Source: Candidatus Woesebacteria bacterium GW2011_GWA1_38_8 (GTDB lineage Bacteria > Patescibacteriota > Microgenomatia > UBA8517). Taken from it: 64,000 nt of DNA. The notes beneath the pieces were generated by a model. That model was not told the DNA's origin, ran no database searches, and saw nothing but the letters and a program-made list of their open reading frames with translations. Shown here piece after piece: positions 19,318-44,091 of the stretch. The stretch spans positions 29,699 through 93,698 of the forward strand of contig LBVJ01000001.1 in assembly GCA_000993025.1 (NCBI GenBank). Reading direction: 5' to 3'. How positions within the stretch are numbered: position 1 is the stretch's first letter; every line of letters starts with the position of its first letter. Made by a program: the position numbers and the translations under genes.

Positions 19318-19320
19318 TAT

Positions 19321-19572: not shown

Positions 19573-19578
19573 GAGTGT

Positions 19579-20533: not shown

Positions 20534-21031
20534 ATGGAAAATGGAAATATATTTAATAGTCCGAACGGAAACATTTACAATACCGGCGAACTCTTAAGGG
20601 AAATAAAATACTTTGTAGATGAACAACCTGCAGAATTTTATTCACTGATCATAGGCACTGACTCACAAACAAAGAGAATAAATGGAGTTTCAGAAATTGA
20701 TTTTGTTACCGCAATAATAATCTACAGGAAGAAAAAGGGGGCTAGATATTTTTGGACTAAAAAACAAGAGATAAAAAAAGCCGTCTTAAGAGATAAGATC
20801 TATACAGAGACTCTATTGAGTCTTGAATATGCGGAAAGTATAGTGCCTGAAATCAGAGGAATCATACCGCCCTCGAAGTACGACCTTGAAATACATATCG
20901 ATGTTGGACCATTTGGTAAAACAAGAAACATGATCCGTGAGGTAGTTGGTATGGTGACCGGAAATGGTTATGTCGCGAAAACTAAACCTGAAAGTTGGGG
21001 AGCAAGTTCGGTTGCTGATAAGCATACTTGA
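20534..21031 (+). CDS. YkuK-family (DUF458) RNase H-like protein
   Basis: 165 aa; SLIIGTDSQTKRINGVSEIDFVTAIIIY matches the GTDSQ-containing YkuK signature as remembered. Confidence 0.45.
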   Translation: MENGNIFNSPNGNIYNTGELLREIKYFVDEQPAEFYSLIIGTDSQTKRINGVSEIDFVTAIIIYRKKKGARYFWTKKQEIKKAVLRDKIYTETLLSLEYAESIVPEIRGIIPPSKYDLEIHIDVGPFGKTRNMIREVVGMVTGNGYVAKTKPESWGASSVADKHT

Positions 21032-21106
21032 CCAAGCTGCGCTTGTTAATTTCTAATTTTTAATTACTAATTTCTAAATATTTATTTTTGGGGTAATATT
21101 ACACTC

Positions 21107-21829: not shown

Positions 21830-21878
21830 GTAATAAGTGAGAAGTACGGGGAAAAGAATGAATGTGGTCAAAAAGATT

Positions 21879-21905
21879 TTTCTAGTACTTAGTTTCTAGT
21901 ACCTA
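21879..21905. promoter_or_regulatory. Tandem near-palindromic 13-nt repeat (TTCTAGTACNTAG x2) just upstream of rmlB
   Basis: ttctagtacttag-t-ttctagtacctag; each unit centred on the palindromes CTAG/GTAC. 15 nt upstream of the rmlB ATG. Confidence 0.25.
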
Positions 21906-21920
21906 GTATATATCGAACTT

Positions 21921-22925
21921 ATGAATTTATTAGTTACAGGAGGGGCTGGCTTTATCGGAAATAATTTTATTCGATATTGGCTTAATAAATATCCGAAAGA
22001 TAAAATATTAAATTTTGACAAGCTCACATATGCAGGACATATCAGTTCCACAAGAGATTTTTCCCAAAATAATAATTACGAATTTATAAAGGGAGATGTA
22101 TGTGACGCAAAAGCAGTAGACGAAGCAGTAAAAAAAACTGACACCATAGTTCACTTTGCTGCAGAAAGCCACGTGGATCGTTCAATACTTGACCCTTTGG
22201 TGTTTGTTCACACAAATGTCATGGGAACACAGGTTTTACTCGAAGCTGCTGTTAAGTATAAGATCAACAGATTTCATCACGTTTCCACTGATGAAGTTTT
22301 TGGTGAGCTTAAATTGGGAACTAATAAAAAATTTAATGAAACCACTCAATATGACCCCAAAAGTCCATATTCTGCCAGTAAAGCGGCTTCAGACCATTTG
22401 GTGAGAGCTTATGGGAAAACATATTCCCTACCGATCACGATATCAAACTGCTCTAATAATTACGGACCCTTTCAGGATCCCGAAAAATTTATACCTCGTG
22501 CAGTAACGAATTTAATTGACGGTAAATCTGTTCCTATATATGGAGACGGTAAATATACACGTGATTGGCTGTATGTTGAAGACCATGTAAGAGCAATAGA
22601 GACCATATTAACAAAAGGAAAGGCTGGAGAGACTTATCTTATAGGAGGATTGACTGAGGATATTAATAATTTAGAGGTTGTTAGAATGATATTAAAAATA
22701 TTAAATATAAATGGGTCATACATAAAATATGTAAAGGACAGAGCAGCGCATGACAGAAGATATGCAGTCGATTGGAGGAAAATTCATAGTAAATTGAAAT
22801 GGAAACCTATGTATGGTTTTGATACGTGGCTTGAAAAAACAGTTGAATGGTATAAAAATAACGAATGGTGGTGGAGGCCGTTAAAGAAAAAGGCTGAAGT
22901 ATTTTATAGAAATACCGAAAAATGA
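21921..22925 (+). CDS. rmlB: dTDP-glucose 4,6-dehydratase
   Basis: TGGAGFIGNNF Rossmann motif; catalytic YSASKAASD (YxxxK); SDR extended family; 334 aa. Confidence 0.9.
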   Translation: MNLLVTGGAGFIGNNFIRYWLNKYPKDKILNFDKLTYAGHISSTRDFSQNNNYEFIKGDVCDAKAVDEAVKKTDTIVHFAAESHVDRSILDPLVFVHTNVMGTQVLLEAAVKYKINRFHHVSTDEVFGELKLGTNKKFNETTQYDPKSPYSASKAASDHLVRAYGKTYSLPITISNCSNNYGPFQDPEKFIPRAVTNLIDGKSVPIYGDGKYTRDWLYVEDHVRAIETILTKGKAGETYLIGGLTEDINNLEVVRMILKILNINGSYIKYVKDRAAHDRRYAVDWRKIHSKLKWKPMYGFDTWLEKTVEWYKNNEWWWRPLKKKAEVFYRNTEK

Positions 22926-22929
22926 TTAT

Positions 22930-23547
22930 ATGAAGTGTAAAAACTTGGACGTAAATAAATTAAAAGTAAGTTGTGAACCATACATAATCGACACTCCTAT
23001 AGAAGGAGTTTTTGCCGTTAAACGTCCAAGATACGGTGATTCCCGTGGCAGTTTTCAAGAACTTTTGAGAATTCCGGATATTTCCAAACGATTTCAAGAA
23101 ACACAGATAGATCAATCTCAAATATCTGTATCGAAAGTTAATGTCTTACGGGGGATCCATGCAGAACCCAGAGACAAGATCATTACACCAATTTTAGGTA
23201 GGATGGCGGCGGTGGTTGTTGATTTAAGGGTTGAATCACCGACTTTTAAAATGTGGGTTCGTTTTGATTTTGATAATACAAATCCTGAAAATGAATTTAC
23301 CACTCTTTTTGTTCCTTCAGGATGCGGAAATTCTCTTTGTGTGTACAAAAAATCCGATGATGCAGGGGATGGTACTGTAATTTACCATTATACCTACAGT
23401 AGTATTTATGATCCTAAGTGGTCGGGATCGGGAGTCAGATATAATGATCCCCAACTTGATATTATTTGGCCGATTAAAAATCCCGTTTTATCCAATAGAG
23501 ACAAGGAACTTCCACTGCTTGACGAATTTATTGTAAAATACCGATGA
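22930..23547 (+). CDS. rmlC: dTDP-4-dehydrorhamnose 3,5-epimerase-like cupin (RmlC)
   Basis: 205 aa cupin with DSRGSFQE and GIHAEPRDK region resembling RmlC active-site segments; positioned between rmlB and rmlD. Confidence 0.65.
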   Translation: MKCKNLDVNKLKVSCEPYIIDTPIEGVFAVKRPRYGDSRGSFQELLRIPDISKRFQETQIDQSQISVSKVNVLRGIHAEPRDKIITPILGRMAAVVVDLRVESPTFKMWVRFDFDNTNPENEFTTLFVPSGCGNSLCVYKKSDDAGDGTVIYHYTYSSIYDPKWSGSGVRYNDPQLDIIWPIKNPVLSNRDKELPLLDEFIVKYR

Positions 23548-24449
23548 ATGATAAGGTGCTAATTACAGGTTCCGACGGAATGGTCGGCTCAAGGTTTGTT
23601 GAACTATATCCAAATAAAAACGAACTGCTTGCTCCAACAATCGCCGAATTTGACCTGTTGAATCCTCATTCGATGGAAAGATATCTGAAAAATAACCCGG
23701 TTTCGTCTGTAATTAATTTTGCAGCCTATACGGATGTGAGAGAAGCAGAGAAAGATAGAGGAAATGAAAATGGACTGTGCTGGAATATAAACATTAAGGG
23801 AATAAAAAATCTGGTTAGTCTATTCGGATCGAAAGTTCATCTTGTACATATTTCAACCGATATGGTATTTAGCGGAAGTAAAGATGATAAGGGACCTTAT
23901 AAAGAGGTACGATGTCCCGAGCGGGATCCGAGCAAGGTTACATGGTATGGTTATACCAAAGGGGAAGGTGAGAATATTATAAGAGAGGCGGATATTAGTT
24001 CAACAATAATAAGAATAATATATCCGGTCAGGGCAAAATATGATAATAAATCAGATTATCTGAGAAAACATTTGAAGCTATATAATGATGATGCATTGTA
24101 TCCGATGTTTAGTGATCAGAAAATATCTGTCACCTTTATTGATGAATTATGTACGACTATCGGTAAAATATTATCCGATAAAATACGTGGTGTCTATCAT
24201 TGTTCCTCAAGTGATACTACCACACCTTATGAACTGATCAGTTATTTAATTGAGGCTAAATATGGAGTGAAAAATACCGTGAAAAGTGCATCTATACATG
24301 AATTTTTGAGAACTTCGGATAATCCACTGAGATATCCCATATTCGGAGGATTAAAATGCGGCATTTCACAAAAAGCACTTGGTATCAGGTATTCCACTTG
24401 TAAGCAGATCGTGAACAAATTGATCGGGCAAAATATTTCTCCTAGATAA
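23544..24449 (+). CDS. rmlD: dTDP-4-dehydrorhamnose reductase (RmlD-like SDR)
   Basis: N-terminal VLITGSDGMVGSRF NAD(P)-binding motif, YGYTKGEGE (YxxxK); 301 aa; last gene of the rml block. Confidence 0.7.
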   Translation: MNDKVLITGSDGMVGSRFVELYPNKNELLAPTIAEFDLLNPHSMERYLKNNPVSSVINFAAYTDVREAEKDRGNENGLCWNINIKGIKNLVSLFGSKVHLVHISTDMVFSGSKDDKGPYKEVRCPERDPSKVTWYGYTKGEGENIIREADISSTIIRIIYPVRAKYDNKSDYLRKHLKLYNDDALYPMFSDQKISVTFIDELCTTIGKILSDKIRGVYHCSSSDTTTPYELISYLIEAKYGVKNTVKSASIHEFLRTSDNPLRYPIFGGLKCGISQKALGIRYSTCKQIVNKLIGQNISPR

Positions 24450-24593: not shown

Positions 24594-27572
24594 ATGGATA
24601 AATACATAATAAATATATATACAAGCAGCGATATTTCATGGAGAACTAAAGTCTATTTGAAGAAGATCGGACGATTATTTACTGGTAATAAAAATGTTTC
24701 AGTGCCGATGGGTGCTGTCTTTAACAAAAGGAACAGATACGAAAAAAATAATATTGTTTATGAAACATATAATGGACTTGAAAAAGAATTCTCGGCTTTT
24801 GAAACCCTGACTGATGGTCAGAAATTATATTGGTCGATAGTTATAATTTCTCTTTTGATCCTGGGACTAATTAATATTCACTTCATGCTTGTTCTTATAG
24901 TCGGCTCTTTGACGTTTATCTACTTTGCCGATTTTTTGTTTACGCTTCTTATTATTGCGCGGTCATTTGCAAATAAATCGGAAATTAAATTCACAAATGA
25001 TGAGCTCGTCGAATTGGATGATTTCACTCTTCCAAGATACACGATACTGTGCCCGCTTTATAAGGAATGGGAGGTAATTGAACAATTTGTAAGATCAATA
25101 GAGATCATCGATTGGCCGAAGGACAAACTTGAAGTAATACTCCTTCTCGAGGAAGACGATACAAAAACAATTAATAAGGCATATGATCTTAATTTACCTT
25201 CCTATTTTCGAATCGAGGTAGTACCAAACTCGCTTCCGAAAACAAAACCAAAGGCATGTAATTATGGCTTGTCTAAAACTACGGGAGAATTTGTTGTCGT
25301 ATATGATGCTGAGGATAAGCCGGATCCCCTTCAGCTTAAAAAAGCCTACCTTGCATTTTCAAGGCTTCCGGAGAACGTTTCGTGCCTGCAATCGAAACTG
25401 AATTACTATAACCAGAACCAGAATATTTTAACAAGGCTATTTACGGCAGAATATTCTTATTGGTTTAATATTGCCCTAACCGGTCTTCAGACATTGAATA
25501 CAATTATTCCTCTTGGAGGGACAAGCAACCATTTTAGGACACCTTTTCTTAAAGATCTGCAGGGGTGGGATCCTTTCAATGTGACCGAGGATTGCGATCT
25601 CGGTACGAGGCTTTTTAAAAAGGGATATAGGACATCCGTTATTGATTCCGAAACGCTCGAAGAGGCAAATTCCAATATTAAAAGTTGGCTCAAACAGAGA
25701 TCGCGATGGATTAAGGGCTACATGCAGACATATCTTGTTCACATGAGAAATCCTATGGAATTTTTAATCAGATATAAACACCACGCTTTACTTTTTCAAT
25801 TGATCATCGGAATGAGAATGGTCTTTATTATTATAAATCCGATCCTATGGCTGATGACTATAGCGTATTTTTCAATGTATCCGGTATTTGGACCTTTTAT
25901 CGAATCGTTATATCCATGGTACATCTTCTATCCGGCTGTATTTTGTCTGATTTTTGCGAATTTTACGTATTTGTATTCATTCATGATCGCATCGGCTAAA
26001 AAAGACAAATGGGAACTTATCCAATACATATTTCTGATGCCTTTTTACTGGCTACTGACAAGTATCTCAGCCGGAATCGCATTTCATCAACTTATAACTA
26101 ACCCATACTATTGGGAAAAGACTAAACATGGGCTTCATTTGGGTAAAAATGAATCGGTTGATAAGGTGTCGGGTATACTGGATATCACAACTACTCCCGT
26201 CTTTCAATTTCCTTACTTTAAATATTTACAAGGCTTTCCGGGTAAATTTATTGTGTCGATTAGGTTGGTGATAAATTTCAAACCTATGGGGATAAAAATA
26301 TCGACCATATCCTTAAGGGAATTAATTTATACGGCAAAAGCATCGCTATACATTAATATTATATCTTTCATCAAACTATTCGGAAATGTAAATATCTCAC
26401 GTCCGCATAATAATAAACAAAACATATTGATCCTGAACTGGAGAGATGTCGGACATGTATGGAAAGGCGGAGCGGAAGTATATGTTCAGGAAATCGCAGA
26501 AAGATGGGTAAAGGGTGGATATGGAGTTACGATCCTCAGCGGAAATGACGGTAATTCCATGTACGATGAAAAAATACACGGTGTAAATATTATGAGAAGG
26601 GGTGGGTTTTTTACCCTGTATCTGTGGGTTTTGATATATTATGTATTCCGACTCCGAAAACATTTTGACCTTATTGTTGATTGTGAAAACGGGATACCCT
26701 TCTTTTCACCCCTGTACAGTACGCTTCCGAAAATTCTTCTCATCCATCATGTCCATCAACAGATCTTCAGGGAAAATTTACCGCTTCCATTCTCCTGGCT
26801 GGCAATGTTTCTGGAGTCGCGTGTCATGAAATATGTCTATAGATCAACAAAAATTGTGACGGTTTCCGAATCAAGTAAAGCCGACATCGCCGGACTTGGG
26901 CTTTCAAAGATCGAGGATATTGAAATAGTAACCCCGGGTATAAACCTCAGGAATTTCAGGAAACTTAAAAAATACACATTTCCCACCTATTCATATCTGG
27001 GTAGATTGATGCCCTATAAAAATATTGATATTTTAATAAAGGCATTTAAAGAAGTGTTACAAAGTGTTCCGGATGCAAAACTTATCATTGCTGGAAGGGG
27101 TCAGTACGAAGAACATCTCAATAGACTTGTTCATAAACTTGATATAGAAAGATTTGTTGAATTTAAGGGTTATGTCAGCGAAAATGAAAAGAGAGAGATC
27201 TTGGGTAGAAGCTGGTTTCTGGTCCAGCCTTCGTCATTTGAAGGTTGGGGAATGACAGTAACAGAGTCAAACGCTGCGGGTACGCCTGTGATCGCGTCAA
27301 ACACCGCAGGATTGAGGGATTCCGTACTAGACGGGCAAACCGGAATACTGGTTAAAACGAAAAGCGTTAAAGAATTGGCAAGATCGATGATAGCGCTGAC
27401 AGAAATGGATGGATTCAGAGAAAGGATTTCAAGAAATGCATATGATTGGTCACGCAAATATTCTTGGAATGTTTCTGCAAGGTTATTTATAAATATACTA
27501 AACAGAGAATCCGTCTCTCCTGCACTAGTTGAGGAGGGTTCAGCAAGCTCAGTGGCGTATTTGGAGGAATAA
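24594..27572 (+). CDS. Bifunctional membrane glycosyltransferase: processive-type GT2 synthase domain (DxD, QxxRW) fused to a C-terminal GT4 domain
   Basis: 992 aa. N-terminal TMs; GT2 core with YDAEDKPD (DxD) and QRSRWIKG (QxxRW), followed by 4-5 TM helices as in cellulose/hyaluronan/NodC-type synthases. Residues ~600-990 form a GT4 domain (EGWGMTVTESNAAGTPVIASNTAGLRDSV). Confidence 0.7.
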   Translation: MDKYIINIYTSSDISWRTKVYLKKIGRLFTGNKNVSVPMGAVFNKRNRYEKNNIVYETYNGLEKEFSAFETLTDGQKLYWSIVIISLLILGLINIHFMLVLIVGSLTFIYFADFLFTLLIIARSFANKSEIKFTNDELVELDDFTLPRYTILCPLYKEWEVIEQFVRSIEIIDWPKDKLEVILLLEEDDTKTINKAYDLNLPSYFRIEVVPNSLPKTKPKACNYGLSKTTGEFVVVYDAEDKPDPLQLKKAYLAFSRLPENVSCLQSKLNYYNQNQNILTRLFTAEYSYWFNIALTGLQTLNTIIPLGGTSNHFRTPFLKDLQGWDPFNVTEDCDLGTRLFKKGYRTSVIDSETLEEANSNIKSWLKQRSRWIKGYMQTYLVHMRNPMEFLIRYKHHALLFQLIIGMRMVFIIINPILWLMTIAYFSMYPVFGPFIESLYPWYIFYPAVFCLIFANFTYLYSFMIASAKKDKWELIQYIFLMPFYWLLTSISAGIAFHQLITNPYYWEKTKHGLHLGKNESVDKVSGILDITTTPVFQFPYFKYLQGFPGKFIVSIRLVINFKPMGIKISTISLRELIYTAKASLYINIISFIKLFGNVNISRPHNNKQNILILNWRDVGHVWKGGAEVYVQEIAERWVKGGYGVTILSGNDGNSMYDEKIHGVNIMRRGGFFTLYLWVLIYYVFRLRKHFDLIVDCENGIPFFSPLYSTLPKILLIHHVHQQIFRENLPLPFSWLAMFLESRVMKYVYRSTKIVTVSESSKADIAGLGLSKIEDIEIVTPGINLRNFRKLKKYTFPTYSYLGRLMPYKNIDILIKAFKEVLQSVPDAKLIIAGRGQYEEHLNRLVHKLDIERFVEFKGYVSENEKREILGRSWFLVQPSSFEGWGMTVTESNAAGTPVIASNTAGLRDSVLDGQTGILVKTKSVKELARSMIALTEMDGFRERISRNAYDWSRKYSWNVSARLFINILNRESVSPALVEEGSASSVAYLEE

Positions 27573-27574: not shown

Positions 27575-28681
27575 ATGAATAATAAGAAAAAAATAGTTAT
27601 ATCAAATTATGATGATATTAAAAACCCCGATTATGCCGGGGGTGCTTCTGTCTCGATATTTAAATTGGCAAAACATTTGTCTCAAGAATATGATGTTTTA
27701 TTAATTACCGGTAAATACCCCGGTTCAAAGGACGAAATAGTGGACGGGGTGAATTACAAAAGAATCGGTTCATACATTATGGGTGGTAAAATCGGACATT
27801 TGTTTTATCTGCTTGCCTTACCCTTCGCATCGATAAGAAATGAATGCGACTTGTGGATCGAAAGTTTTACACCCCCATTCTCAGTTTCATTGGTACCATT
27901 GTTTCTGGGTAAAAATAAAGTTGTAGGTTTGGTACACATGTTGTCAGGAGTTGATATGAAGAGAAAATATAAACTACCCTTCAATAAAATTGAACATTTA
28001 GGTCTGAAGTTATATGAAAAATATATTGTATTAACTGAAGCATCAAGAAAAGAAATATTAAAATCAAATCCAAATGCACAAGTGTCGTTGATACCTAATG
28101 GAATTAATATCCCGTCAGAAAACAGTTTGAAAGTTAAAAAGAAATCGCAAATACTTTTTATTGGTCGTATTGAAGTAAATCAAAAAGGACTTGACCTGCT
28201 TATCAAAAGTTATAAGAAAGCTATTGATAAGATAGATGCAGAACTTGTGATTGCAGGAACAGGGATGAAAGACGAACTTCATAAGCTTGATTGTTTAATT
28301 ACCAAGTATAATTTAATAAATAAGATTAGGCTGGTGGGTCGTGTTGGCGGAAAGGCCAAAGATAAGCTTATACGTGAATCTCATATGATAATTGTACCAT
28401 CGAGATTTGAGACTTTTGGAATTACGGCGCTCGAAGCATTATCAAATAAAATTACTTTAATTTGTTTTGATATAACAGGTTTTAAATGGTTGCCTAAAAA
28501 CGTTGCATTCAAAATAATTCCATTTTCAGTTAAAGATCTTTCACAAACGATTATCGATCTTTTTAATAACCCCAGATTAAGAAATAATAAAATAGAAAAT
28601 GGTTATAGATTTTCAGCTCGTTTCGCATGGAAGGATGTCTTTTTGAAGTATGATGAAGTTATAAAAATATATATCAAATAA
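27575..28681 (+). CDS. GT4-family glycosyltransferase
   Basis: 368 aa; C-terminal IVPSRFETFGITALEALS (E-x7-E) donor-binding motif. Confidence 0.7.
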   Translation: MNNKKKIVISNYDDIKNPDYAGGASVSIFKLAKHLSQEYDVLLITGKYPGSKDEIVDGVNYKRIGSYIMGGKIGHLFYLLALPFASIRNECDLWIESFTPPFSVSLVPLFLGKNKVVGLVHMLSGVDMKRKYKLPFNKIEHLGLKLYEKYIVLTEASRKEILKSNPNAQVSLIPNGINIPSENSLKVKKKSQILFIGRIEVNQKGLDLLIKSYKKAIDKIDAELVIAGTGMKDELHKLDCLITKYNLINKIRLVGRVGGKAKDKLIRESHMIIVPSRFETFGITALEALSNKITLICFDITGFKWLPKNVAFKIIPFSVKDLSQTIIDLFNNPRLRNNKIENGYRFSARFAWKDVFLKYDEVIKIYIK

Positions 28682-28685: not shown

Positions 28686-30533
28686 ATGGATGAGATAGTA
28701 AATTATATAGTTATAAATAAAATAAAATGTTATTTTATATCCCCTCATCAGGACGATGCAATATTTTCGGCAGGGGGACTTATATCGTATCTTTCAAATA
28801 AGACGGAGGTAAAGGTCATAAACGTATTTAACGGTATCGGAAAACCACCCTATACTTTGTCCGGAAATGTATTTGTTAAAAGAAGCGGATGTAAGAGTGT
28901 CAAAGACCTGTGTGATAAAAGACACCTTGAAGATGCTTCGGTGTTTAAAGAGATGGGAGTAGATATGATTAATCTAAATTTTGATGATGCGTTGTGGAGA
29001 AAAAAACCAATTATTAAAACACACGAAAGGATTATCGGGAAAGTATTACCTGAGATATTGCACATATATCCAATTTACCGTACATCAATTGCGCATGGAC
29101 AGATTAAAAAATCGGATGAGAGTAACTTGGGAAAAATAGAAAAGGCCTTACGTAAAAACATTAAAGGCAAAAATGTGTTCGTTTTTTGTTCAGCGTCGAT
29201 TGGAGGACACGTTGATCATAAGATTGTAAGAAATATATGTGAGAGTAGCTTCAAAAACTTATATTTGTGGTCGGATTATCCTTACAACATCAGACTCGGT
29301 AATTATAAGAATTACAAAAGTATTTCGGAAAATGATTATTTTGAATTCAAATACGGTCAACCTAAAAGATTTGAAATGATCAAAAAATATATAACTCAAA
29401 AAAATGTCTTTAAAAATAACCAAATTAGAGTTACAAAGGAAATTTATTATTTCAAAGGAAAGTATGAAAATCTTATTAAAGAATCACGGGAGGGAATAAT
29501 TAACATAGAAACTAAACAGACATTAGATGAAAAACTTAAAAGTGATTGGATAGCGCTTTGGAATAGAAGCGACAACGCAAACATATCAAACTCACCTGAC
29601 TGGTTTGAAATATGCAATAAAACATATAAGTATAAGAATATCAATTTTGTATGTGCATACTGCGGTAAAGATTTGGTTGGTATCTTGCCGCTTCGGAAAG
29701 AGAAGTTTCTGTTTTTTGAACATTACACAACTATGGGTGGCAGGTATACCGACAAACTTGAGTTATTGACAGCAAGAAATTCCACAAATCTCTTGAATAA
29801 AATTATTCTGTACGCAAAAAAGCAATTTGACAACATTTCGCTTCCTGAATCTGATTTCGAAACTGCAATGTATTTGGCAAATGTATGGAATGCAAAATAC
29901 TCATGTTCTTCCGTGACTCCATATATTCCGGCAACAGACAACTATTTAGAGTTTTTATCCCGAAAACATAAAAAGGCAATGGACCATATTTTGAAAAGCC
30001 ACGGAGATAAACTGAAATTTAAAATTATTGGGGAGAAGCACCTGGATTATCTGGATCAAATTGTCCGTTTAGAAAGAAAAAGCACTAAATCAACCAAAAG
30101 AATCGGAACTATTAAATGTGCAAATGATATAAGATTTTTACGAAATATCATTTCAAAGTTTAACAAGAATATTTGTCTGGTTTTACTTTTTTACAATGGC
30201 AGGTTGGCTGCTTTTCGTATTGGGGCGGGTGTAAAGGGGGTTTATTATACATTTATGACTGCATACCGGGAATTCGCCAGGGAAGTTATTCCGGGAAGGT
30301 TGCTTCTTTATTATGTTTTAAGAAATAGACTTCGTGAAGGTATTTCGAAAGTTGACATGCTACGTGGTGATAATCAAATAAAAAGAGATTACACACCTTT
30401 CATGGAATACAGGTTTAACGTGTATCTGGGATACCGTCTATTTTCGTACAGTAATATATTATTTTGCAAATTAAAATATTTTATAGATCAGCATAGTTTT
30501 TTGTACAAAATATGTTTGTTGGTTAAACATTAA
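28686..30533 (+). CDS. Fusion of PIG-L/LmbE-like N-acetylglucosaminyl deacetylase (N-terminal) and FemAB/CelD-like (Acetyltransf_6/GNAT-fold) acyltransferase domain (C-terminal)
   Basis: 615 aa. N-terminal YFISPHQDDAIFSAGG (LmbE SPHPDDE-type zinc-binding motif) and later His-rich segment (GGHVDHKIV). The C-terminal ~330 aa resemble BioF2-like/CelD/FemAB acyltransferase domains (large GNAT-like, ends ...DMLRGDNQIKRDYTPFMEYRFNVYLG). Confidence 0.55.
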   Translation: MDEIVNYIVINKIKCYFISPHQDDAIFSAGGLISYLSNKTEVKVINVFNGIGKPPYTLSGNVFVKRSGCKSVKDLCDKRHLEDASVFKEMGVDMINLNFDDALWRKKPIIKTHERIIGKVLPEILHIYPIYRTSIAHGQIKKSDESNLGKIEKALRKNIKGKNVFVFCSASIGGHVDHKIVRNICESSFKNLYLWSDYPYNIRLGNYKNYKSISENDYFEFKYGQPKRFEMIKKYITQKNVFKNNQIRVTKEIYYFKGKYENLIKESREGIINIETKQTLDEKLKSDWIALWNRSDNANISNSPDWFEICNKTYKYKNINFVCAYCGKDLVGILPLRKEKFLFFEHYTTMGGRYTDKLELLTARNSTNLLNKIILYAKKQFDNISLPESDFETAMYLANVWNAKYSCSSVTPYIPATDNYLEFLSRKHKKAMDHILKSHGDKLKFKIIGEKHLDYLDQIVRLERKSTKSTKRIGTIKCANDIRFLRNIISKFNKNICLVLLFYNGRLAAFRIGAGVKGVYYTFMTAYREFAREVIPGRLLLYYVLRNRLREGISKVDMLRGDNQIKRDYTPFMEYRFNVYLGYRLFSYSNILFCKLKYFIDQHSFLYKICLLVKH

Positions 30534-30584: not shown

Positions 30585-32120
30585 TTGGGTGTTTTCCAAA
30601 TATTTATGAAATTTTTAAGTACATTATATATATTCATAATTACCTTACTATTAATTTCACTATTAACGAAGGGTGTGCGTTCTAACATAATGCCGTCAGA
30701 TGTTTATTCTTTAAAGGATTACTCCCAACCCTTTGAACTTTCACCTGAGAGAGGAAGGTATGCTTTGACTCAATCAATTGTTGAGAATCATAGTTTGTTT
30801 CTCCCATTGGAAATTGCTGGATATGTCACACCCGATCTTGGTTATATTAATGGAAACTTTGTTTCTCTATTTGCGCCAGGAGTATCTTTTGTGGTTATAC
30901 CATTTTATTATATCGGTAAATATTTTAATGCAAACCAGCTTTTCACTTTTTGGTCTGTAGGATTGGCTGCTGTAATCAATGCGTATATCATTTCTGACAT
31001 TGTTAACCGTATTACTAAATCAGGATTTGGCTACATCGCGGGATTGTCTTTTATTTTTGCTACTTCCGCATTAGCTTACGCGACTACATTATATCAACAC
31101 CATTTTACGACACTGATTATTTTGCTAGCACTTCATATAACCATATTTTCAAATAATACAAACAATTCATTGTTAATGGGTGTCCTGTTTGGGGTAATGT
31201 TATTGATAGAATATCCGGCAGTCATATTTTTACTCCCAATTATATTGGTTTATATGTTTAGACATTATTGTTCACTTCAAAACAAAGAATCATTTAAAAT
31301 TTCGATAGATTCCAGAATAATGCTATTTATCTTATACGTATTCATAGGAATAATTCCAACTTTGATTTACAACAGTTATGTAAATACAAACCCCTTTAAA
31401 CTTTCCGGAACTGTAGAATCTGTCGAGAACATAAATATAAATAACAATGGTTCAGGTTATGAAATCATAAAAGGAGAAACTGATGAGTTTAAAAAAAGCG
31501 TTGGAGGATTTTTCAAATATGAAAACATTGCAAATAGTTGGTATATATTGCTTTTAAGTAGTGAAAGAGGAATTCTGTTTTACTCTCCACTGTATTTACT
31601 TACCATATTAATATTTAATTTGAAAAACAAAATATCAGATATCGAAAAATACCCATTTTATCTTTTAGTATCAATTAATTTTGCAGTATTATTGTTATAC
31701 GGTATGTGGGGAGATCCGTGGGGCGGTTGGGCATTCGGACCAAGATATTTAATTCCATTCTTTGCTTTTTCCTCAATATTATTGGGAATAGTGTTTAAGT
31801 ATTATGCATACAGTCATTGGTTTAAATTATCTTATTTTACACTTCTAGTTTACTCAATCTTAATAAATGTTGCTGGTGCTCTGACTACAAATGCAATTGT
31901 TCCAAGTAAAGAAGCAGAATCTGCATTGATGCCAACAATAAAATACCTATATAATTTTGAGTTGATTGGATTCGGAAAGTCGTCTTCATTTATTTACAAC
32001 ACATATTTTAGTAAGTACATTCCGCTAACCGTATTTTATATTCTTATAATTGCAATTATCGTTTTCTTGTTATTCCTCGCAAATAAGATGTCATCAGATA
32101 AAATATCTCATGAAAATTAA
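30585..32120 (+). CDS. Polytopic membrane protein, GT-C-fold glycosyltransferase-like (ArnT/PMT-like)
   Basis: 511 aa, >=11 TM helices. Conserved acidic/Arg motif in the first extracytoplasmic loop (SPERGRYALTQS), as in lipid-linked-sugar-dependent GT-C enzymes. Confidence 0.45.
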   Translation: MGVFQIFMKFLSTLYIFIITLLLISLLTKGVRSNIMPSDVYSLKDYSQPFELSPERGRYALTQSIVENHSLFLPLEIAGYVTPDLGYINGNFVSLFAPGVSFVVIPFYYIGKYFNANQLFTFWSVGLAAVINAYIISDIVNRITKSGFGYIAGLSFIFATSALAYATTLYQHHFTTLIILLALHITIFSNNTNNSLLMGVLFGVMLLIEYPAVIFLLPIILVYMFRHYCSLQNKESFKISIDSRIMLFILYVFIGIIPTLIYNSYVNTNPFKLSGTVESVENININNNGSGYEIIKGETDEFKKSVGGFFKYENIANSWYILLLSSERGILFYSPLYLLTILIFNLKNKISDIEKYPFYLLVSINFAVLLLYGMWGDPWGGWAFGPRYLIPFFAFSSILLGIVFKYYAYSHWFKLSYFTLLVYSILINVAGALTTNAIVPSKEAESALMPTIKYLYNFELIGFGKSSSFIYNTYFSKYIPLTVFYILIIAIIVFLLFLANKMSSDKISHEN

Positions 32121-34815
32121 CTTTATAAATCGCAAAGTGGTGATTTCTTTTAATGATAAATCAATAAAGAAATCATTGAATTTTTATAATAAACATGGTG
32201 TATTGGTTGTGACCATATTCACTTCAATTTTGAGTTTTATATCGATATTGGTTTCATATAAATACGATATTATCCTTGCATATAACGATTCTCGTGCCCA
32301 TATGAATATGGCAAGACTTGTGTTTGATAATTTGAAACCCGGGTTTGCCCAGTTGGGGGGGGTGTGGCTTCCCTTTCCTCATATTATGATACTTACACTT
32401 GTATGGAATGATTGGTTGTGGCAGAGCGGGATTGCTGGATCAATTTATTCAATGTCTTTTTATGTTCTTTCATCAATATATATTTTTAAGCTTCTTAGAT
32501 TTTTAATTAAAGATAAGGTAACTGTATTTATCTGCACTCTAAACTATGTTATTAACGTCAATTTATTGTACATGCAATCAACTCCAATGACTGAATTAAC
32601 GTTGATATTCTTTTTTATAACCTCTGTCTATTATTTACTTCAATGGGTAAATACTAAAAAAGTATTACATATGATTTTACTTGCATTATCGGTTTTTTTG
32701 GCAACTCTTACAAGATATGATGGATGGATGCAATTTCTAACAACATTGACTGTTTTAATTATTGTTGAATTTATGGAATTTAAGACTAATTTCAGAAAAA
32801 ATAATTTTGGTTCTATTATTAAAAGCATTTTATTGAACGCGAAGATGCGTTCAACTATCTTATTTTTTAGTGTTATGGCAGGTCTTGGAATATTGTTATG
32901 GATCCTGTGGAATTATTTGATATTTGATGACCCTATATATTTTGCAGTTGGTCCATATTCCGCAAGGGCTCAGCAATTTGCCATAGAAAGTGCTGGAAAA
33001 CTTTTTACAAAACACAATATTGCACTTTCATTATCTGCATATTGGTGGGCTGTATCCGATAACGTTGGAATAATCGTTTTGCTCACGGGTATTATAGGTT
33101 TTATATGTTTTGTAATGGAAAATCCAAATAAATACACTAAAATTGTGCTTTTAACACTTTTTTCTCCGGCTATATTTCATATTGCTTCGTTATATTTAGG
33201 AAGTTCAGTGTTGGTGTTGCCAGAAATGAATATTAATGTTGCAGAGGGATTGAAGGGAACACTTTTTAACGCAAGGTATGGATTGATAATGCTTCCCGCA
33301 GTAAGTGTTTTTATGGCATATTTTGCAAGGAGAAGCGTCTTCGCAAAGTCTATTGTATTTTTTGTTGTCATATTTACACCTCTTATGATGTTAAAGGATA
33401 ACTATATTATCACTTTGACAGATGGAAAAATGGGGTCAAGTTCACTTAGAGTGAAAGATGTTAGTGAATGGCTGAAACAGAACGCCGATGACAGTAATGA
33501 ATTAATATTGACAGCACTATCATACAATAGCGCACTTTCTTTCAGCACAGGATTTCCATTAAGCAGATTTATCCATGAAGGAACTGGAAAATATTGGGAA
33601 TCCTCTGTAGTTGATCCTGATCAATATGCGGATTGGATTGTAATGGCAAATGGAGATGTCGGGGATCCCTTGTATGACTCATTAATAAAGAAACATGATT
33701 CACAATTCTTAAGGAATTATGAATTGAAAAAACGATTTGAATTTATTGATGTCTATGTAAAAAAATATGTACCAGATGATTTTGTATATGTTAGAGATAG
33801 TGGTTTTTGGATGAATGGTGATAGATACAAGTTTCTTGGAGTAAATTCCTATGACCTAATTTTCCGCTCTCCAAATGAAGTTGCCTCGACACTGTCATCG
33901 GCAAAAAACAATGGAATTGATGTGGTCAGAGTATGGGTTTTTGGTGAAGGTAGTGAAAATTTAATACAACCTGAACCCGGAAAGTATAATTCAATACTTA
34001 TGAACAATGTGGATTATGTTTTGGCAACAGCATACAAGTTGGATATGAAAGTGATACTCGTCATGTCAAATTATTGGGAAGCATATGGGGGAATAAGACA
34101 GTATTTGCGATGGGTAGATTTACCTGACCAATCAGCTTCAGATTTAGATGCATTCTTTACCGATAGTCGAACAAAAGATATCTACAAAGACTTTATAAGG
34201 GAGATAGTTCTAAGAAAAAACAGTCTAACGGGAGAATTATACAAAAACGACCCCGCAATATTTTCTTGGGAGCTTATGAACGAACCTAGAAGTTCTTCGA
34301 CCGGAACAGCCGGAAAGGTTACTGAATGGATAGATGAAATGTCTAGTTTTATCAGAACATTGGATAAATATCACATGATTACGTCAGGCCACGAAGGACA
34401 CTTTAGTGACTTCTCAATAAACCCATATGCAACAGGTCCATTTATCGATCAGTTTGGTCATAAATCCGATTTTGATGCGTTGTCTGGACATTATTATATT
34501 GATCAATACATATCAGAAAAACCACTTTATGAATTTGAAATAATTGACAAGTGGAGCGACCATGCAAAGGAAATTGATAGGGCGTTTTTTATTGAGGAAA
34601 TCGGTTTTTCAAAAAGATCTGGGGAAAACTCTGGTTATGATAGATTGTTTCTTTATGAAAAACTTTTTGAATCGGCAAAGAAAAACGATGTACAGGGTGT
34701 TATTGTTTGGAATTGGGCTTTAAAAATTGATGATGATTTTGGTATTTCGCCACTCGATCCAAACGACGAAAAACTTATAAAGTTATTAAACTTATATTCA
34801 AAAAGTCTAAAATAA
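32110..34815 (+). CDS. Fusion: N-terminal polytopic GT-C-like membrane domain + C-terminal GH5-family (beta-mannanase/cellulase-like) glycoside hydrolase domain
   Basis: Start taken as ATG 32110 (MKINFINRK); the ORF-track start at 32050 overlaps the previous gene by 70 nt. Residues 1-480: ~12 TM with AYNDSRAHMNMARLV loop motif. Residues ~560-900: GH5 (beta/alpha)8 signatures, including the acid/base WELMNEPR (NEP) and nucleophile FFIEEIGFS motifs. Confidence 0.6.
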   Translation: MKINFINRKVVISFNDKSIKKSLNFYNKHGVLVVTIFTSILSFISILVSYKYDIILAYNDSRAHMNMARLVFDNLKPGFAQLGGVWLPFPHIMILTLVWNDWLWQSGIAGSIYSMSFYVLSSIYIFKLLRFLIKDKVTVFICTLNYVINVNLLYMQSTPMTELTLIFFFITSVYYLLQWVNTKKVLHMILLALSVFLATLTRYDGWMQFLTTLTVLIIVEFMEFKTNFRKNNFGSIIKSILLNAKMRSTILFFSVMAGLGILLWILWNYLIFDDPIYFAVGPYSARAQQFAIESAGKLFTKHNIALSLSAYWWAVSDNVGIIVLLTGIIGFICFVMENPNKYTKIVLLTLFSPAIFHIASLYLGSSVLVLPEMNINVAEGLKGTLFNARYGLIMLPAVSVFMAYFARRSVFAKSIVFFVVIFTPLMMLKDNYIITLTDGKMGSSSLRVKDVSEWLKQNADDSNELILTALSYNSALSFSTGFPLSRFIHEGTGKYWESSVVDPDQYADWIVMANGDVGDPLYDSLIKKHDSQFLRNYELKKRFEFIDVYVKKYVPDDFVYVRDSGFWMNGDRYKFLGVNSYDLIFRSPNEVASTLSSAKNNGIDVVRVWVFGEGSENLIQPEPGKYNSILMNNVDYVLATAYKLDMKVILVMSNYWEAYGGIRQYLRWVDLPDQSASDLDAFFTDSRTKDIYKDFIREIVLRKNSLTGELYKNDPAIFSWELMNEPRSSSTGTAGKVTEWIDEMSSFIRTLDKYHMITSGHEGHFSDFSINPYATGPFIDQFGHKSDFDALSGHYYIDQYISEKPLYEFEIIDKWSDHAKEIDRAFFIEEIGFSKRSGENSGYDRLFLYEKLFESAKKNDVQGVIVWNWALKIDDDFGISPLDPNDEKLIKLLNLYSKSLK

Positions 34816-34897: not shown

Positions 34898-35845
34898 ATG
34901 AAAGTGTCACTTGTTGTTACCGTACTAAATGAAGAACCGTCGATTGCAGCACTTCTCGAGTCTATTATTTCTCAGTTAAAGAAACCTGATGAGATTGTTA
35001 TTGTCGATGGTGGTTCAACCGACAAGACTGTAAACATAATAAAAAGTTATCAAAAAATTATTAAGAATATAAAATTATATGAATTTAAGACTACAAGATC
35101 CGAAGCGAGAAATATTGGAATAGATGCATCTTCAGGCAATATTATTGTTACAACAGACGCAGGTTGCGTTGCCGAAAAACATTGGATAGAAAAGATTACA
35201 AAACCGTTTTATGAACCAAAAGTTGATATGGTTGCAGGATTTTATGAAATGATCGGCGGTAATTCTTCATTAAGGCTTGCAATGTCCGTATTTATTGGTA
35301 TAACACCTGACAAATTTGATGATAGATTTTTGGCGTCGGCTAGATCTTTGGCATTCCGAAAAGATCTTTGGGAGAAAGTAGGAGGGTTTCCTGAAGGTTT
35401 GAAAGATACCGCAGAAGATACACTTTTCAATTACAAAATTATTACAACAGGGGCGAAGATAGTACGTGTAAAAGATGCGGTTGTGTACTGGCAATTGCCG
35501 TTGACTTTGACGGAAGGGATCAAAAAAATGTATCTTTATGCCAAAGGTGATGCTTTATCCGGTATATGGTGGCATCCGGTAAAGAAATTATCGACCCACA
35601 ACATTAAGATCATCTCCGTATATTTAAGGTATGTAATTGGTATCTATATACTCCTTATGGCCACAAAATATGAATTGTTTAATTTACTGTTCGTATTGGG
35701 AATATTTTTTTATATGTTTTGGGCATTTAAGAAAGTATACTGTCGGACGAACAGTTTTAAAGCCGGTTTGTGGGGGGTAATTATACAGTTTGCTTCGGAC
35801 ATTGCCGTAATGCTCGGCTTCCTTATGGGATTGGTGTCAATATAA
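34898..35845 (+). CDS. GT2-family glycosyltransferase with C-terminal membrane helices
   Basis: SLVVTVLNEE...IVIVDGGSTDKT GT2 N-terminus; TTDAG DxD-like motif; C-terminal 3 TM. Confidence 0.7.
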   Translation: MKVSLVVTVLNEEPSIAALLESIISQLKKPDEIVIVDGGSTDKTVNIIKSYQKIIKNIKLYEFKTTRSEARNIGIDASSGNIIVTTDAGCVAEKHWIEKITKPFYEPKVDMVAGFYEMIGGNSSLRLAMSVFIGITPDKFDDRFLASARSLAFRKDLWEKVGGFPEGLKDTAEDTLFNYKIITTGAKIVRVKDAVVYWQLPLTLTEGIKKMYLYAKGDALSGIWWHPVKKLSTHNIKIISVYLRYVIGIYILLMATKYELFNLLFVLGIFFYMFWAFKKVYCRTNSFKAGLWGVIIQFASDIAVMLGFLMGLVSI

Positions 35846-35894: not shown

Positions 35895-37112
35895 ATGGGT
35901 TACTTTGACACAAGCATGTCGGGTGTAAAATGGATTGGATCGTTTAAGATATTGAGTAGAATATTGTCACTGGTAAGAATCGCAATTCTAGCCAGAATTC
36001 TATCCCCCATTCAATTCGGAGTATTTGGAATTGCCTCTTTAGCATTATCAGTTGTTGAGACTTTGACTGAACCGGGGATTTACGTATATTTGATGCAGGA
36101 GAAAAAAAGTATCCACAAATATATTGATACGGCTTGGGTTATATCAATTCTCAGAGGTGTTTTATTGTTTACCACCCTGATTTTTTCTTCAGGCATTATA
36201 TCCGGCTTTTTTAACACACCGGAAGTGAAACATATTATAAACTTAATTGCACTGGTTGTTTTAATAAGAGGGTTCATGAATCCCTTGAGGGTCAATTTCC
36301 TGAAACAATTGGATTATAGAAAAGAATTTTCAATCAATAGTTTAGTCTTATCTGTTGATATTGTTGTCACTGTCTTATCGGTGGCACTTTTTAAAGACCC
36401 TCTTGGATTAGTTTTAGGATTGATCGCGGGTGCCATTGTGGAAGTGATTCTTTCTTTTGCTCTTATAAAATATCACCCAAAAATTAAATTTGATATTCGG
36501 TTGGCAAAAAAAATAACGTCTGCGGGAAAATGGGTTACCGGTAGCACAATTTTCAACTTTCTATTTAGCGAAGGTGATGACACCCTTGTGGGGAAGTTAT
36601 TAGGCAAATACGATCTGGGGATATATCAGATCTCATATAAAATTGCGACACTACCTCTTACAGAAATTACCAATGTGGCAAATACAGTAACATTTCCGAT
36701 ATTCGTACAGATCTCGAATGAAAAGAAACGCATTGCAAAGGTATTCATAAAAACAGCTTTGATTATTGGCTTATTGTCGTTTGTATTAAGTACTTTTATA
36801 TTTTTATTTGCTGACACAATCGTTGCGATACTACTCGGAAGTGCATGGAGTGACTCGGTAGATTTAATTAAACTACTGGTGATATTCGGATTCATTAGAG
36901 CAATCGCAATATCCTGCAACCCTCTTTTTAATGCATTAAAAAAGCAAAAATATGTTACGTTATATACCACAATCTCATTTGTACTTATGGCAATGACAAT
37001 TTTTCCATTAATGCAGAAATTTGGCCTGAGAGGTGTAATCTATTCAGTCATTATATCCTCGTCAATCTCGTTTTTAGTGAATGTAATAAATGTAATAAAA
37101 GTACTCAAATGA
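35895..37112 (+). CDS. wzx: Polysaccharide/O-unit flippase (Wzx, MOP superfamily)
   Basis: 405 aa, ~12 TM. N-terminal KWIGSFKILSRILSLVRIAILARILSPIQFGVF is typical of the Polysacc_synt family. Confidence 0.65.
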   Translation: MGYFDTSMSGVKWIGSFKILSRILSLVRIAILARILSPIQFGVFGIASLALSVVETLTEPGIYVYLMQEKKSIHKYIDTAWVISILRGVLLFTTLIFSSGIISGFFNTPEVKHIINLIALVVLIRGFMNPLRVNFLKQLDYRKEFSINSLVLSVDIVVTVLSVALFKDPLGLVLGLIAGAIVEVILSFALIKYHPKIKFDIRLAKKITSAGKWVTGSTIFNFLFSEGDDTLVGKLLGKYDLGIYQISYKIATLPLTEITNVANTVTFPIFVQISNEKKRIAKVFIKTALIIGLLSFVLSTFIFLFADTIVAILLGSAWSDSVDLIKLLVIFGFIRAIAISCNPLFNALKKQKYVTLYTTISFVLMAMTIFPLMQKFGLRGVIYSVIISSSISFLVNVINVIKVLK

Positions 37113-42915: not shown

Positions 42916-44091
42916 ATGAAGATTTTAAGAGTGTATGCTTGCATTCTATTCCTCTCCTTTTGCTTTCTTCTGCCCTTCGGACAATTGTTGAGGTATGAAA
43001 CCTATTTATTTAGTAAATATATTGTTATTCACCCCGTTGATGTTGTTGTCCTTCTATCGTTGCCGTATTTATTGCTATCAAAGAAGAACTCCTATTTTAT
43101 TCACTCAAACAAACTTATTCTGGTGTTAATATTTTCCATGATTTTTTCTCTAAATATTTTTATGGTTAAGGATCTTATGGTAGGCTTTTTGTATTTGATT
43201 CGGTTAATATCATATTTCTCTTTTGCGCATTCTATTTATTATTTGTCTACCGGGGACAAAGTGAAAGAAAAAATAATTACATTTCTATATTTATCTATCA
43301 CATCATTTTTAATTATTGGTTTTGTACAATATATATATTATTTCGACCTTCGTGATCTATATAATATAGGGTGGGATGATCATTATTTCCGATTTGTTTC
43401 AACATTGTTTGACCCTGCCTATACGGCATTGGTTTTAATCATAGGTTTAATAATATTGCTGGAATTTAACTTGCCGATATCGAAATATTTGAAATATATT
43501 TTCACTGTTCTTTTTATCATCTCTATATTATTAACCTTTTCGAGAGCGGGTTATTTAACATTGATAGGATACTTTTTGATTAAATATAAAAAATACGTCT
43601 TGAAGATTTTATTAATTTCAGTCGCAATAATTTTATTTATACTGATCCTTCCAAAGCCAAAAAGTTCCGGGGTCGAAATATATCGTACTTTTAGTATTTA
43701 TTCCAGGTTAGATAATTATTATGAAACTTTTAATATATTCAAGATTCATCCTTTATTTGGAATTGGCTTTAATAACATATGCCTTTATAGGGTTGGATAT
43801 CTAAATGTCGACAACATAAAGTCACATTCTTGTTCGGGAAGTGATTCGTCTATTCTTTTACTCTTGGCGTCGAGTGGAATATTGGGATTAGTAACTTTTA
43901 TTAATGTTATTTTCAATTTTATTAAAAATCCTATCACAAACTCTTACAACAGGATGTTATTTTATCTGATATTTATAACATTAATTAATTCGCTTTTTAA
44001 TAATAGCCTTTTTTACAATTATTTAATGGGGGTATATGCAATTATATTAGGTCTGGCGGGACCAGCTTTCATTCCTCAAAGAAAAGAGTGA
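42916..44091 (+). CDS. O-antigen ligase/polymerase-like (Wzy_C family) membrane protein
   Basis: 391 aa, ~10 TM. Periplasmic loop FSRAGYLTLIGYF with the conserved Arg, typical of the Wzy_C/O-antigen ligase domain. Confidence 0.5.
   Translation: MKILRVYACILFLSFCFLLPFGQLLRYETYLFSKYIVIHPVDVVVLLSLPYLLLSKKNSYFIHSNKLILVLIFSMIFSLNIFMVKDLMVGFLYLIRLISYFSFAHSIYYLSTGDKVKEKIITFLYLSITSFLIIGFVQYIYYFDLRDLYNIGWDDHYFRFVSTLFDPAYTALVLIIGLIILLEFNLPISKYLKYIFTVLFIISILLTFSRAGYLTLIGYFLIKYKKYVLKILLISVAIILFILILPKPKSSGVEIYRTFSIYSRLDNYYETFNIFKIHPLFGIGFNNICLYRVGYLNVDNIKSHSCSGSDSSILLLLASSGILGLVTFINVIFNFIKNPITNSYNRMLFYLIFITLINSLFNNSLFYNYLMGVYAIILGLAGPAFIPQRKE

Follow-up and report, generated by a model that had tools for sequence, protein, structure and literature searches.

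What would a glycoside hydrolase do at the end of a membrane-embedded glycosyltransferase that lies within a glycan locus? The question is raised by two adjacent open reading frames (ORFs), here called ORF1 and ORF2, in a stretch of 64,000 nucleotides (nt) from Candidatus Woesebacteria bacterium GW2011_GWA1_38_8 (contig LBVJ01000001.1, positions 29,699 to 93,698), a member of the Candidate Phyla Radiation (CPR). This whole stretch is referred to below as the window. Both ORFs encode polytopic proteins predicted to adopt the GT-C glycosyltransferase fold, and that of ORF2 carries at its C-terminus a domain of glycoside hydrolase family 5 (GH5), which belongs to clan GH-A. In our preferred reading, to which we assign a probability of roughly 0.55, they belong to a surface-polysaccharide assembly module in which a GT-C protein decorates, and the tethered GH5 domain trims or releases, the beta-linked product of a polymer synthase. 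Which polymer is made, the use of a lipid-linked donor and a GH5 domain that serves synthesis and not breakdown are all inferred; a processing or trimming role would fit the conserved gene context.

ORF1 (30606..32120, on the plus strand, as are the other features of the glycan locus below) encodes a 504-amino acid (aa) GT-C-fold membrane protein with 12 transmembrane (TM) helices. An alternative TTG start lies at 30585, but the GenBank protein UT06_C0001G0057, also of 504 aa and 100% identical to ORF1, begins at the ATG at 30606. ORF2 was listed from a TTG at 32050 to 34815, and its ATG at 32110 yields a protein of 901 aa. The region between this ATG and the ORF1 stop is an 11-nt overlap with the sequence ATGAAAATTAA, which is typical of translational coupling, and the two genes are probably a coupled pair. 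At E<=1e-3, 1109 homologues of ORF1 and 1864 homologues of ORF2 (the latter among 8000 scored candidates) were detected. These are not chance reading frames, since each has more than 1000 homologues and ORF2 matches the Pfam GH5 family. An earlier note, made from the sequence alone, had placed both on the plus strand as glycosyltransferase-like membrane proteins, the second with a GH5 domain. The ORF list of the window bears out their strand and position, and all the motifs quoted there were found, namely SPERGRY in ORF1 and YNDSRAHMNMARLVFD, WELMNEPR and IEEIGF in ORF2; its range of 560-921 for the GH5 domain is numbered from the TTG start of ORF2.

The C-terminal region of ORF2 (aa 556-901; 33775..34815) was assigned as a (beta/alpha)8 domain closest to the GH5_7 mannanase type from Pfam, from sequence (phmmer) and profile searches of the Protein Data Bank (PDB) and from Foldseek. 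Pfam PF00150 (GH5) matches residues 590-869 (E 1.1e-15), and homologues carry PF26410 (GH5_mannosidase). When residues 501-901 were compared with PDB sequences by phmmer, the matches were beta-mannanases only, the best being soybean GmMAN19-1 (9m20, 5.4e-47), BlMan5_7 (8gf3, 3.5e-40) and tomato LeMAN4 (1rh9, 4.4e-40). A profile built from 42 fusion proteins gave mannanases and mannosidases at 3.9e-74 to ~1e-35, GH5_7-type beta-mannanases spanning 4e-74 to 1e-42, as against 8e-6 for the best endoglucanase. Every one of the top PDB matches carries a beta-mannanase or beta-mannosidase annotation, and two, 8gf3 and 9m20, are explicitly GH5_7, in the case of GmMAN19-1 (9m20) according to PMC12512182. 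The AlphaFold model of ORF2 has a mean pLDDT of 89.2 and a pTM of 0.77, and its GH5 domain superposes on mannanase structures with Foldseek TM-scores of 0.81-0.86. The mannanase-like assignment of the earlier note is thus upheld by sequence, profile and fold.

Both catalytic glutamates are in place. The predicted general acid/base, E725 (codon 34282..34284), lies in the NEP motif of WELMNEPR (34267-34290), and the predicted nucleophile, E830 (codon 34597..34599), is the second glutamate of IEEIGF (34591-34608). The two align with the equivalent residues of 9m20, 8gf3 and 1rh9, E830 falling on the nucleophile glutamate within AEFGKS of the tomato enzyme. Among the 42 fusions E725 is kept in 40 and E830 in 41, with both present in 40, and each member of the signature R607, N724, E725, H794, Y796, E830 and W867 is conserved in 40 or 41. 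This catalytic set is also conserved across the CPR, Dormibacterota and Actinoplanes fusions, and hence across three phyla, with Y796 replaced by Phe in the Actinoplanes and Ca. Nephthysia proteins. The alignment proposed in the earlier note as a check has therefore been carried out, its two glutamates occupy GH5 catalytic positions, and its description of the domain as apparently intact stands. On this evidence the GH5 domain of ORF2 is a predicted retaining enzyme with an intact catalytic site, closest to the GH5_7 (endo-beta-1,4-mannanase) type.

The domain shares its fold with the GH5_7 mannanases (1rh9, 9m20, 8gf3 and the Thermotoga enzyme 3pz9), and the NEP motif, the nucleophile glutamate and the Arg/His/Tyr/Trp signature align, yet it is only ~26-35% identical to them. 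It also differs in forming the C-terminal part of an 11-TM protein, whereas the mannanases are secreted or anchored by a single TM helix, and in that mannose-precursor genes are not found near ORF2. In a neighbour-joining tree, which is rough and without support values, the fused GH5 domains form one clade apart from the free mannanases, and among the homologues examined no close free-standing relative was found. One candidate for such a relative, P0241, was rejected as a fusion fragment cut by a contig end, as its sequence begins inside the linker domain.

The membrane portion of ORF2 (aa 1-430; 32110..33399) comprises 11 TM helices with the N-terminus inside, and was assigned to the GT-C fold from AlphaFold, Foldseek and hhalign. 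It is followed by a predicted extracytoplasmic alpha/beta linker domain (aa 431-555; 33400..33774, delimited from secondary structure in the model), which also occurs in the ~540-aa family members that have no GH5 domain, since these TM-only homologues cover the query to about residue 550. Foldseek matches the membrane part to DPY19 (7zlg, E 3.9e-8) and STT3, and likewise returns a GT-C fold for ORF1, whose AlphaFold model has a pLDDT of 91.4. Comparison of the two families by hhalign gave a probability of 94.6% (E 6.7e-8) over ~300 columns; ORF1 and ORF2 are remote paralogues, both with a predicted GT-C fold. The earlier description of both membrane proteins as GT-C-like accordingly agrees with the predicted structures. 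Some homologues give weak matches to PMT_2 (PF13231), but the window proteins match no family model of this kind (PMT_2 or GT39/GT83-like), and their membrane domains are therefore filed here under the GT-C fold and not as PMT_2 members. A search of PDB sequences with the fusion-family profile recovered GH5 enzymes only and no GT-C protein.

The most strongly conserved residues of the membrane domains are positioned where GT-C active sites lie. In ORF2 the motif YNDSRAHMNMARLVFD (32281..32328) occupies the first extracytoplasmic loop and contains the candidate catalytic aspartate D60 together with H64, R69 and D73; each of the four is conserved in 41-42 of the 42 fusions, D60 being nearly invariant and D73 invariant. 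Further invariant or near-invariant positions are R202-Y203-D204 and R389-Y390-G391. All three phyla share the AY(N/G)DxxAH core, to which D60 and H64 belong; the fusions of Actinoplanes, Symbioplanes and Ca. Nephthysia have Lys for R69 and either Gly or Ser for D73. In ORF1 the invariant residues are E44, S46 and E48 of the PFELSPERGR loop, D77, H165 and the GDPWGGWAFGxRY loop. An acidic first-loop motif, noted earlier for both proteins, is thus confirmed by E44, E48 and D77 of ORF1, which are invariant, and by D60 and D73 of ORF2.

Helices in the models and hydropathy give 12 TM helices for ORF1 and 11 for ORF2, so that the earlier estimate of about 12 for both holds for ORF1 and not for ORF2. 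The odd number matters, because with the N-terminus inside, 11 helices place the linker and GH5 domains outside the cell. The distribution of positive charge is consistent with this orientation: lysine plus arginine density is 0.235 per residue in the predicted inner loops and 0.056 in the outer loops of the ORF2 family (42 proteins), and 0.229 versus 0.087 in the ORF1 family (49 proteins). The GH5 domain is therefore predicted, by the positive-inside rule, to be extracytoplasmic and on the same side as the acidic first-loop motif, as the earlier note had supposed when it proposed topology prediction as a check. The fold and topology evidence is predicted throughout.

The association between the two genes extends well beyond the window. 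Among the top matches to ORF2 there are ~42 full-length fusion homologues, followed by hundreds of ~540-aa homologues that have no GH5 domain. An ORF1 homologue lies immediately upstream of the fusion gene in 7 of 7 cases examined by contig look-up, usually overlapping it, and immediately downstream of three distant ORF1-type genes the next gene is in each case of the ORF2 type, lacking GH5. We then scanned one genome per species, labelling genes with hidden Markov models (HMMs), which yielded 80 loci. An ORF1-type gene is directly upstream of the ORF2-type gene in 65 of these, and in eight others a synthase-type family 2 glycosyltransferase (GT2) takes this position instead. Upstream sequence of 6 kb or more is available for 65 loci, of which 34 carry a GT2 with a QRxRW motif upstream on the same strand. 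The gene that accompanies the fusion from locus to locus is this QRxRW synthase-type GT2, and not Wzx or Wzy genes.

Fusions outside the CPR occur in Ca. Dormibacteria (locus L017), Ca. Nephthysia (L042), Actinoplanes sp. (L063) and a cultured actinomycete, Symbioplanes lichenis TISTR 2343 (L033, on NZ_JAUZQD010000002.1 at around 696.6-701.4 kb), with both GT-C and GH5 motifs conserved. The Symbioplanes and Actinoplanes loci have only the synthase and fusion genes in common, their flanks being unrelated. In these high-GC genomes ORF calling merged reading frames, and the order of synthase then fusion is taken from HMM and tblastn coordinates, with start codons undefined. Locus L008 contains a compact operon in which the synthase is followed by an ORF1-like gene and then the fusion. 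Domain fusions tie in a further component: in L042 (Ca. Nephthysia, Dormibacterota) an ArnC-like GT2 (8vxh, 1.5e-13; the dolichyl-phosphate mannose synthase (DPMS) structure 5mlz, 2.7e-7) is fused N-terminally to the GT-C-GH5 protein, an indirect sign that a polyprenyl-phosphate donor may be used, and in L014 and L017 an ArnC-like GT2 and a QRxRW GT2 are joined in a single protein.

The corresponding synthase-type protein in the window is the 992-aa fusion of GT2 and GT4 domains encoded at 24594..27572, which was assigned from Pfam, NCBIfam, its motif and its TM helices. Its N-terminal, membrane-embedded and cellulose-synthase-like GT2 domain carries QRSRW at aa 368 and is flanked on both sides by TM helices; Pfam and NCBIfam matches are to PgaC/CelA-like proteins, and the best PDB match is BcsA (3.4e-9). 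The equivalent synthases in L004, L006 and L008 carry QRTRW. It is likely that the GT2-GT4 protein makes the polymer on which ORF1 and ORF2 act.

We therefore envisage that a GT2 that loads a lipid carrier, a polymer synthase, one or more GT-C transferases and the GH5 domain operate as one functional unit. The QRSRW GT2 would make and extrude a beta-linked surface polysaccharide, and the GT-C proteins would take sugar from a polyprenyl-phosphate donor and add it to the polymer, or to its anchor, on the outer face of the membrane. The tethered GH5 domain would cut the beta-linked backbone, whereby chains might be trimmed or released, or stalled ones cleared. BcsZ, KORRIGAN and the membrane-anchored plant mannanases AtMAN2/5 play this part in their own systems. 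A GT2 that inverts the linkage of an alpha-linked nucleotide sugar should form beta linkages, which a GH5 enzyme can cleave; a GT-C that inverts that of a beta-linked lipid-phosphate sugar should instead form alpha branches, which such an enzyme would leave uncut. Because the GT-C linkages would be alpha and those of the synthase beta, the probable substrate of the GH5 domain is the synthase product and not that of the GT-C protein. ORF1 may handle an amino sugar, in view of its deacetylase partners (described below).

Several observations weigh against this reading. The case is computational, being made from gene structure, folds, catalytic residues, topology, synteny and fusions. Pfam gives no match to the membrane domains of ORF1 or ORF2 even at E<=10, and for want of a significant match their GT-C membership rests on predicted structures. 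A QxxRW motif is shared by some non-processive GT2 enzymes, glucosylceramide synthase among them, and does not prove processivity. A search of the window for GDP-mannose genes gave none, GalU and RmlABCD being present instead; the local precursor genes point to UDP-glucose and dTDP-rhamnose rather than GDP-mannose, and a mannan substrate is unsupported for this reason. If the GT-C enzymes are inverting and form alpha linkages, the GH5 domain would not be cutting the product of the very protein to which it is joined. The hydrolase is moreover optional, as GH5 fusions account for only 7 of the 80 loci and the remaining 73 have no GH5 domain, and in 2 of the 42 fusions the domain is degenerate: P0043 has NDP in place of NEP and is missing the nucleophile region, and in P0048 WEVRPP replaces the NEP motif.

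The retention of a GH5 domain after loss of its catalytic residues in P0043 and P0048 suggests an added, non-catalytic role, and leads to the strongest competitor of the trimming model. Rather than working mainly as a hydrolase, the domain might transfer polymer chains to another glycan or to an acceptor in the wall as an endo-transglycosylase, or it might bind the acceptor, keeping a beta-glycan in place for the adjacent GT-C active site. We consider this unlikely but worth keeping in view. The carbohydrate-binding domains of EmbC and AftD play such an acceptor-holding role, and the predicted topology would keep the GH5 domain permanently tethered beside the GT-C active site on the same membrane face. 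Two lineages that retain the domain minus its catalytic residues are what a holding function would allow, but a pure binding module would not need the complete catalytic set that is conserved in 40 of 42 fusions and in three phyla. GH5 is also a retaining family, and transglycosylation is reported for GH5 beta-mannanases (PMC4237917), although transglycosylation and hydrolysis are inseparable by sequence.

It is somewhat less probable that ORF2 is a membrane-anchored degradative mannanase that feeds on environmental or host beta-mannans, its polytopic part serving as a mere anchor in a locus that is incidental. The GH5 domain is ~30% identical to genuine degradative mannanases, including dockerin-bearing and CBM2-bearing ones (CBM, carbohydrate-binding module), and in Symbioplanes a GH43-CBM35 gene adjoins the module on the other strand. 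A mere anchor, however, would not need D60, H64, R69, D73, R202, D204 and R389, which are invariant or nearly so across the 42 fusions. Across three phyla the flanks of the fusion gene differ, yet it keeps a synthase-type GT2 at its side, an ArnC-like GT2 is fused to the GT-C-GH5 protein in one lineage, the fused GH5 domains form their own clade, and its neighbourhood in the window is free of CBM, sugar-transporter and mannose-catabolism genes. Degradation of host glycans, which the earlier note had also raised, is in view of the conserved GT-C residues and the linkage to a synthase the less likely reading. We regard as improbable the further proposal that the GT-C pair glycosylates surface proteins in the manner of Pgf or PMT enzymes, with sortase substrates as targets and the GH5 domain editing the protein-linked glycan. 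It draws on the sortase and ~200-aa fn3-like genes just downstream of the pair in L004, L006, L009, L011 and L012, and on the streptococcal Pgf paradigm (PgfS, PgfM1 and PgfM2), in which two polytopic membrane proteins act with a GT2 (PMC5856776); a 315-aa GT2 of the window weakly matches PgfS. Yet the window has no sortase or fn3 gene beside the GT-C pair, the minimal module of Actinoplanes and Dormibacterota consists of synthase and fusion without a sortase, and a domain of the endo-beta-mannanase type has no obvious role on short O-glycans.

The assembly module that we favour has its closest parallel in plants. AtMAN2 and AtMAN5 are membrane-anchored GH5_7 mannanases that are needed for synthesis of Arabidopsis glucomannan by the GT2 enzyme CslA (PMC13181414). 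By analogy, ORF2 would be a membrane-tethered GH5_7-type enzyme genetically tied to a processive GT2 synthase, and the plant enzymes may offer a further parallel in being needed to make the polymer and not to degrade it. Unlike AtMAN2 and AtMAN5, which have a single TM anchor and reside in the Golgi, ORF2 has a complete GT-C glycosyltransferase as its predicted anchor and would act at the bacterial cell surface. A bolder proposal is that one or two GT-C proteins, the QRxRW synthase, an ArnC-like GT2 that loads the lipid carrier and the GH5_7-type domain form an undescribed bacterial machine for a beta-mannan or glucomannan surface polymer, of single origin and spread across CPR, Dormibacterota and Actinomycetota, in which the mannanase is required for synthesis, making it the bacterial counterpart of plant CslA-MAN2/5; we offer this tentatively and think it doubtful in its full form.

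Glycanases are established companions of polymer synthases, as exemplified by BcsZ (GH8, with BcsA), PslG, PgaB, PelA and AlgL, and by KORRIGAN in plants. The present system resembles those of the BcsZ/BcsA type in that a predicted extracytoplasmic endo-glycanase is encoded with a QxxRW-type synthase. It differs in that BcsZ, PslG, PgaB, PelA, AlgL and KORRIGAN are separate soluble or single-pass proteins, none of them fused to a GT-C domain. The suggestion in the earlier note that such a glycanase is unusual in a polysaccharide locus thus holds for Wzx/Wzy O-antigen loci, but in synthase-dependent systems it is normal.

The ArnC/ArnD/ArnT system and LgmA/LgmC/LgmB of Bordetella are lipid-carrier pathways of three steps: polyprenyl phosphate is charged with a sugar by a GT2, the sugar is modified by a deacetylase or deformylase, and a GT-C enzyme transfers it on the outside. 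An ArnC-like GT2 is likewise fused in L042, and a PIG-L or CE4 deacetylase lies beside, or is fused to, ORF1-type genes. In contrast to the Arn system, ORF1 and ORF2 have no detectable sequence similarity to ArnT, and in contrast to both there are two GT-C proteins rather than one, joined by a polymer synthase and a GH5 domain. Lipid A cannot be the acceptor if CPR cells are monoderm. EmbC/AftD with their carbohydrate-binding modules, PMT with its MIR domains and PglB/STT3 with its C-terminal domain likewise combine a polytopic GT-C core, its N-terminus inside, with a soluble domain on the outer face; in those proteins the accessory domain binds the acceptor, whereas ORF2 has in its place a whole glycoside hydrolase whose catalytic residues are conserved.

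GH5 domains and the GT-C fold are familiar separately, and it is their fusion in a single protein that was not found described in the searched literature. Nor did we find there any account of GT-C-GH fusions, of CPR GT39/GH5 proteins, of the ORF1/ORF2 pair (families without Pfam coverage) or of the association with a QRxRW synthase that recurs in three phyla. A large part of bacterial diversity belongs to the CPR, whose cell envelopes are almost unknown. The analysis defines a very common CPR gene pair, both families of which have more than 1000 detectable members, assigns it to the GT-C fold and ties it to a polymer synthase. With glycosyltransferase and glycoside hydrolase combined in a single membrane enzyme that faces outward, the fusion would represent a new layout for the maturation of polysaccharides. 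Occurrence of the fusion in Actinoplanes and in cultured Symbioplanes lichenis TISTR 2343 opens its function to ordinary genetics, and not only to study in uncultured organisms.

The surrounding window is chromosomal, with a GC content of ~35%, and its glycan locus is flanked on both sides by cell-division and other housekeeping genes. Assigned by Pfam, the locus begins with rmlA, rmlB, rmlC and rmlD for dTDP-rhamnose synthesis (21107..24449), and the synthase gene is followed by a GT4 glycosyltransferase (27575..28681). The gene directly upstream of ORF1 (28686..30533) encodes a protein of 615 aa in which a PIG-L-type de-N-acetylase is joined to a GNAT domain (Acetyltransf_6), and which could strip the acetyl group of an amino sugar and then attach a different acyl group. 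In L009 the PIG-L and GNAT domains are encoded by separate neighbouring genes, and the slot upstream of ORF1 is held by PIG-L and/or Acetyltransf_6 in both L009 and L010. The next gene after ORF2 (34898..35845, Pfam) encodes a GT2 of 315 aa whose C-terminal region is hydrophobic; it matches ArnC (5e-6) and PgfS (1.2e-8) weakly in NCBIfam and generic GT2 enzymes in the PDB, and is weakly supported as a candidate polyprenyl-phosphate-sugar synthase. Next come a Wzx-type flippase (Polysacc_synt_3; 35895..37112, Pfam E 6.6e-61) and, near the end of the glycan locus, a Wzy_C or O-antigen-ligase-like membrane protein (PF04932, E 2.9e-12; 42916..44091). Right after the locus, on the minus strand, are genes for an Ig-like/Glucodextran_B surface protein (44069-44779) and a LysM peptidoglycan-binding protein (45516-46145). 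Amid the housekeeping genes, a 157-aa ORF (62716-63189) matches PhageMetallopep, a putative phage metallopeptidase (E 6.8e-19), and the adjoining ORF (63277-63954) is without a Pfam match.

Related loci show further domain arrangements. Proteins of ~1129 aa in which an APH/choline-kinase-like domain and a CE4 polysaccharide deacetylase precede an ORF1-type GT-C domain are encoded in L060 (4501-7890) and L064 (4568-7951), which suggests that ORF1-type enzymes may use a deacetylated, possibly phosphorylated, sugar donor. An 881-aa PMT/PMT_2 protein with a C-terminal GH8 domain (E 2.9e-46) occurs in L004 (13857-16502, minus strand) and also in L005; the L004 gene adjoins that for a 463-aa QRTRW GT2, an arrangement that parallels the GT-C-GH5 protein with its synthase and recalls BcsA/BcsZ. 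In many loci the GT-C pair is followed by a protein of ~360-420 aa with a weak CarboxypepD_reg match; such CarboxypepD_reg-like proteins are found at L009:10098-11177, L010:10292-11530, L011:10216-11454, L001:12738-14003 (minus strand) and L085:7923-10748. In L085 it forms the C-terminal part of a fusion with the ORF2-type protein, and no homologue of the ~360-420-aa protein was found in the window. Just downstream of the pair in several CPR genomes there is a sortase gene, usually with one for an fn3-like protein of ~190-280 aa that is 41-51% identical between loci (L004:12733-13856, L006:13678-14812, L009:11273-12656, L011:11552-12711 and L012:3582-4142, the last, where the contig ends, having only the sortase gene). 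Possibly the fn3-like product is a surface-protein substrate tied to the glycan system.

Duplication is also evident. L001 (Gottesmanbacteria, MFJL01000044.1) contains three or four paralogous ORF2-type copies (10001-12691, 15731-17386, 17457-19947 and 20917-22539), one of which is split into membrane (517 aa) and GH5 (336 aa) ORFs, and L006 has two complete pairs of ORF1 and fusion genes in opposite orientation. Between L016 and L092, many CPR-like loci are titled 'uncultured Gammaproteobacteria', 'Pseudomonadales' or 'Bdellovibrionales' (from binchicken or SRP co-assemblies) and are probably mislabelled Patescibacteria bins.

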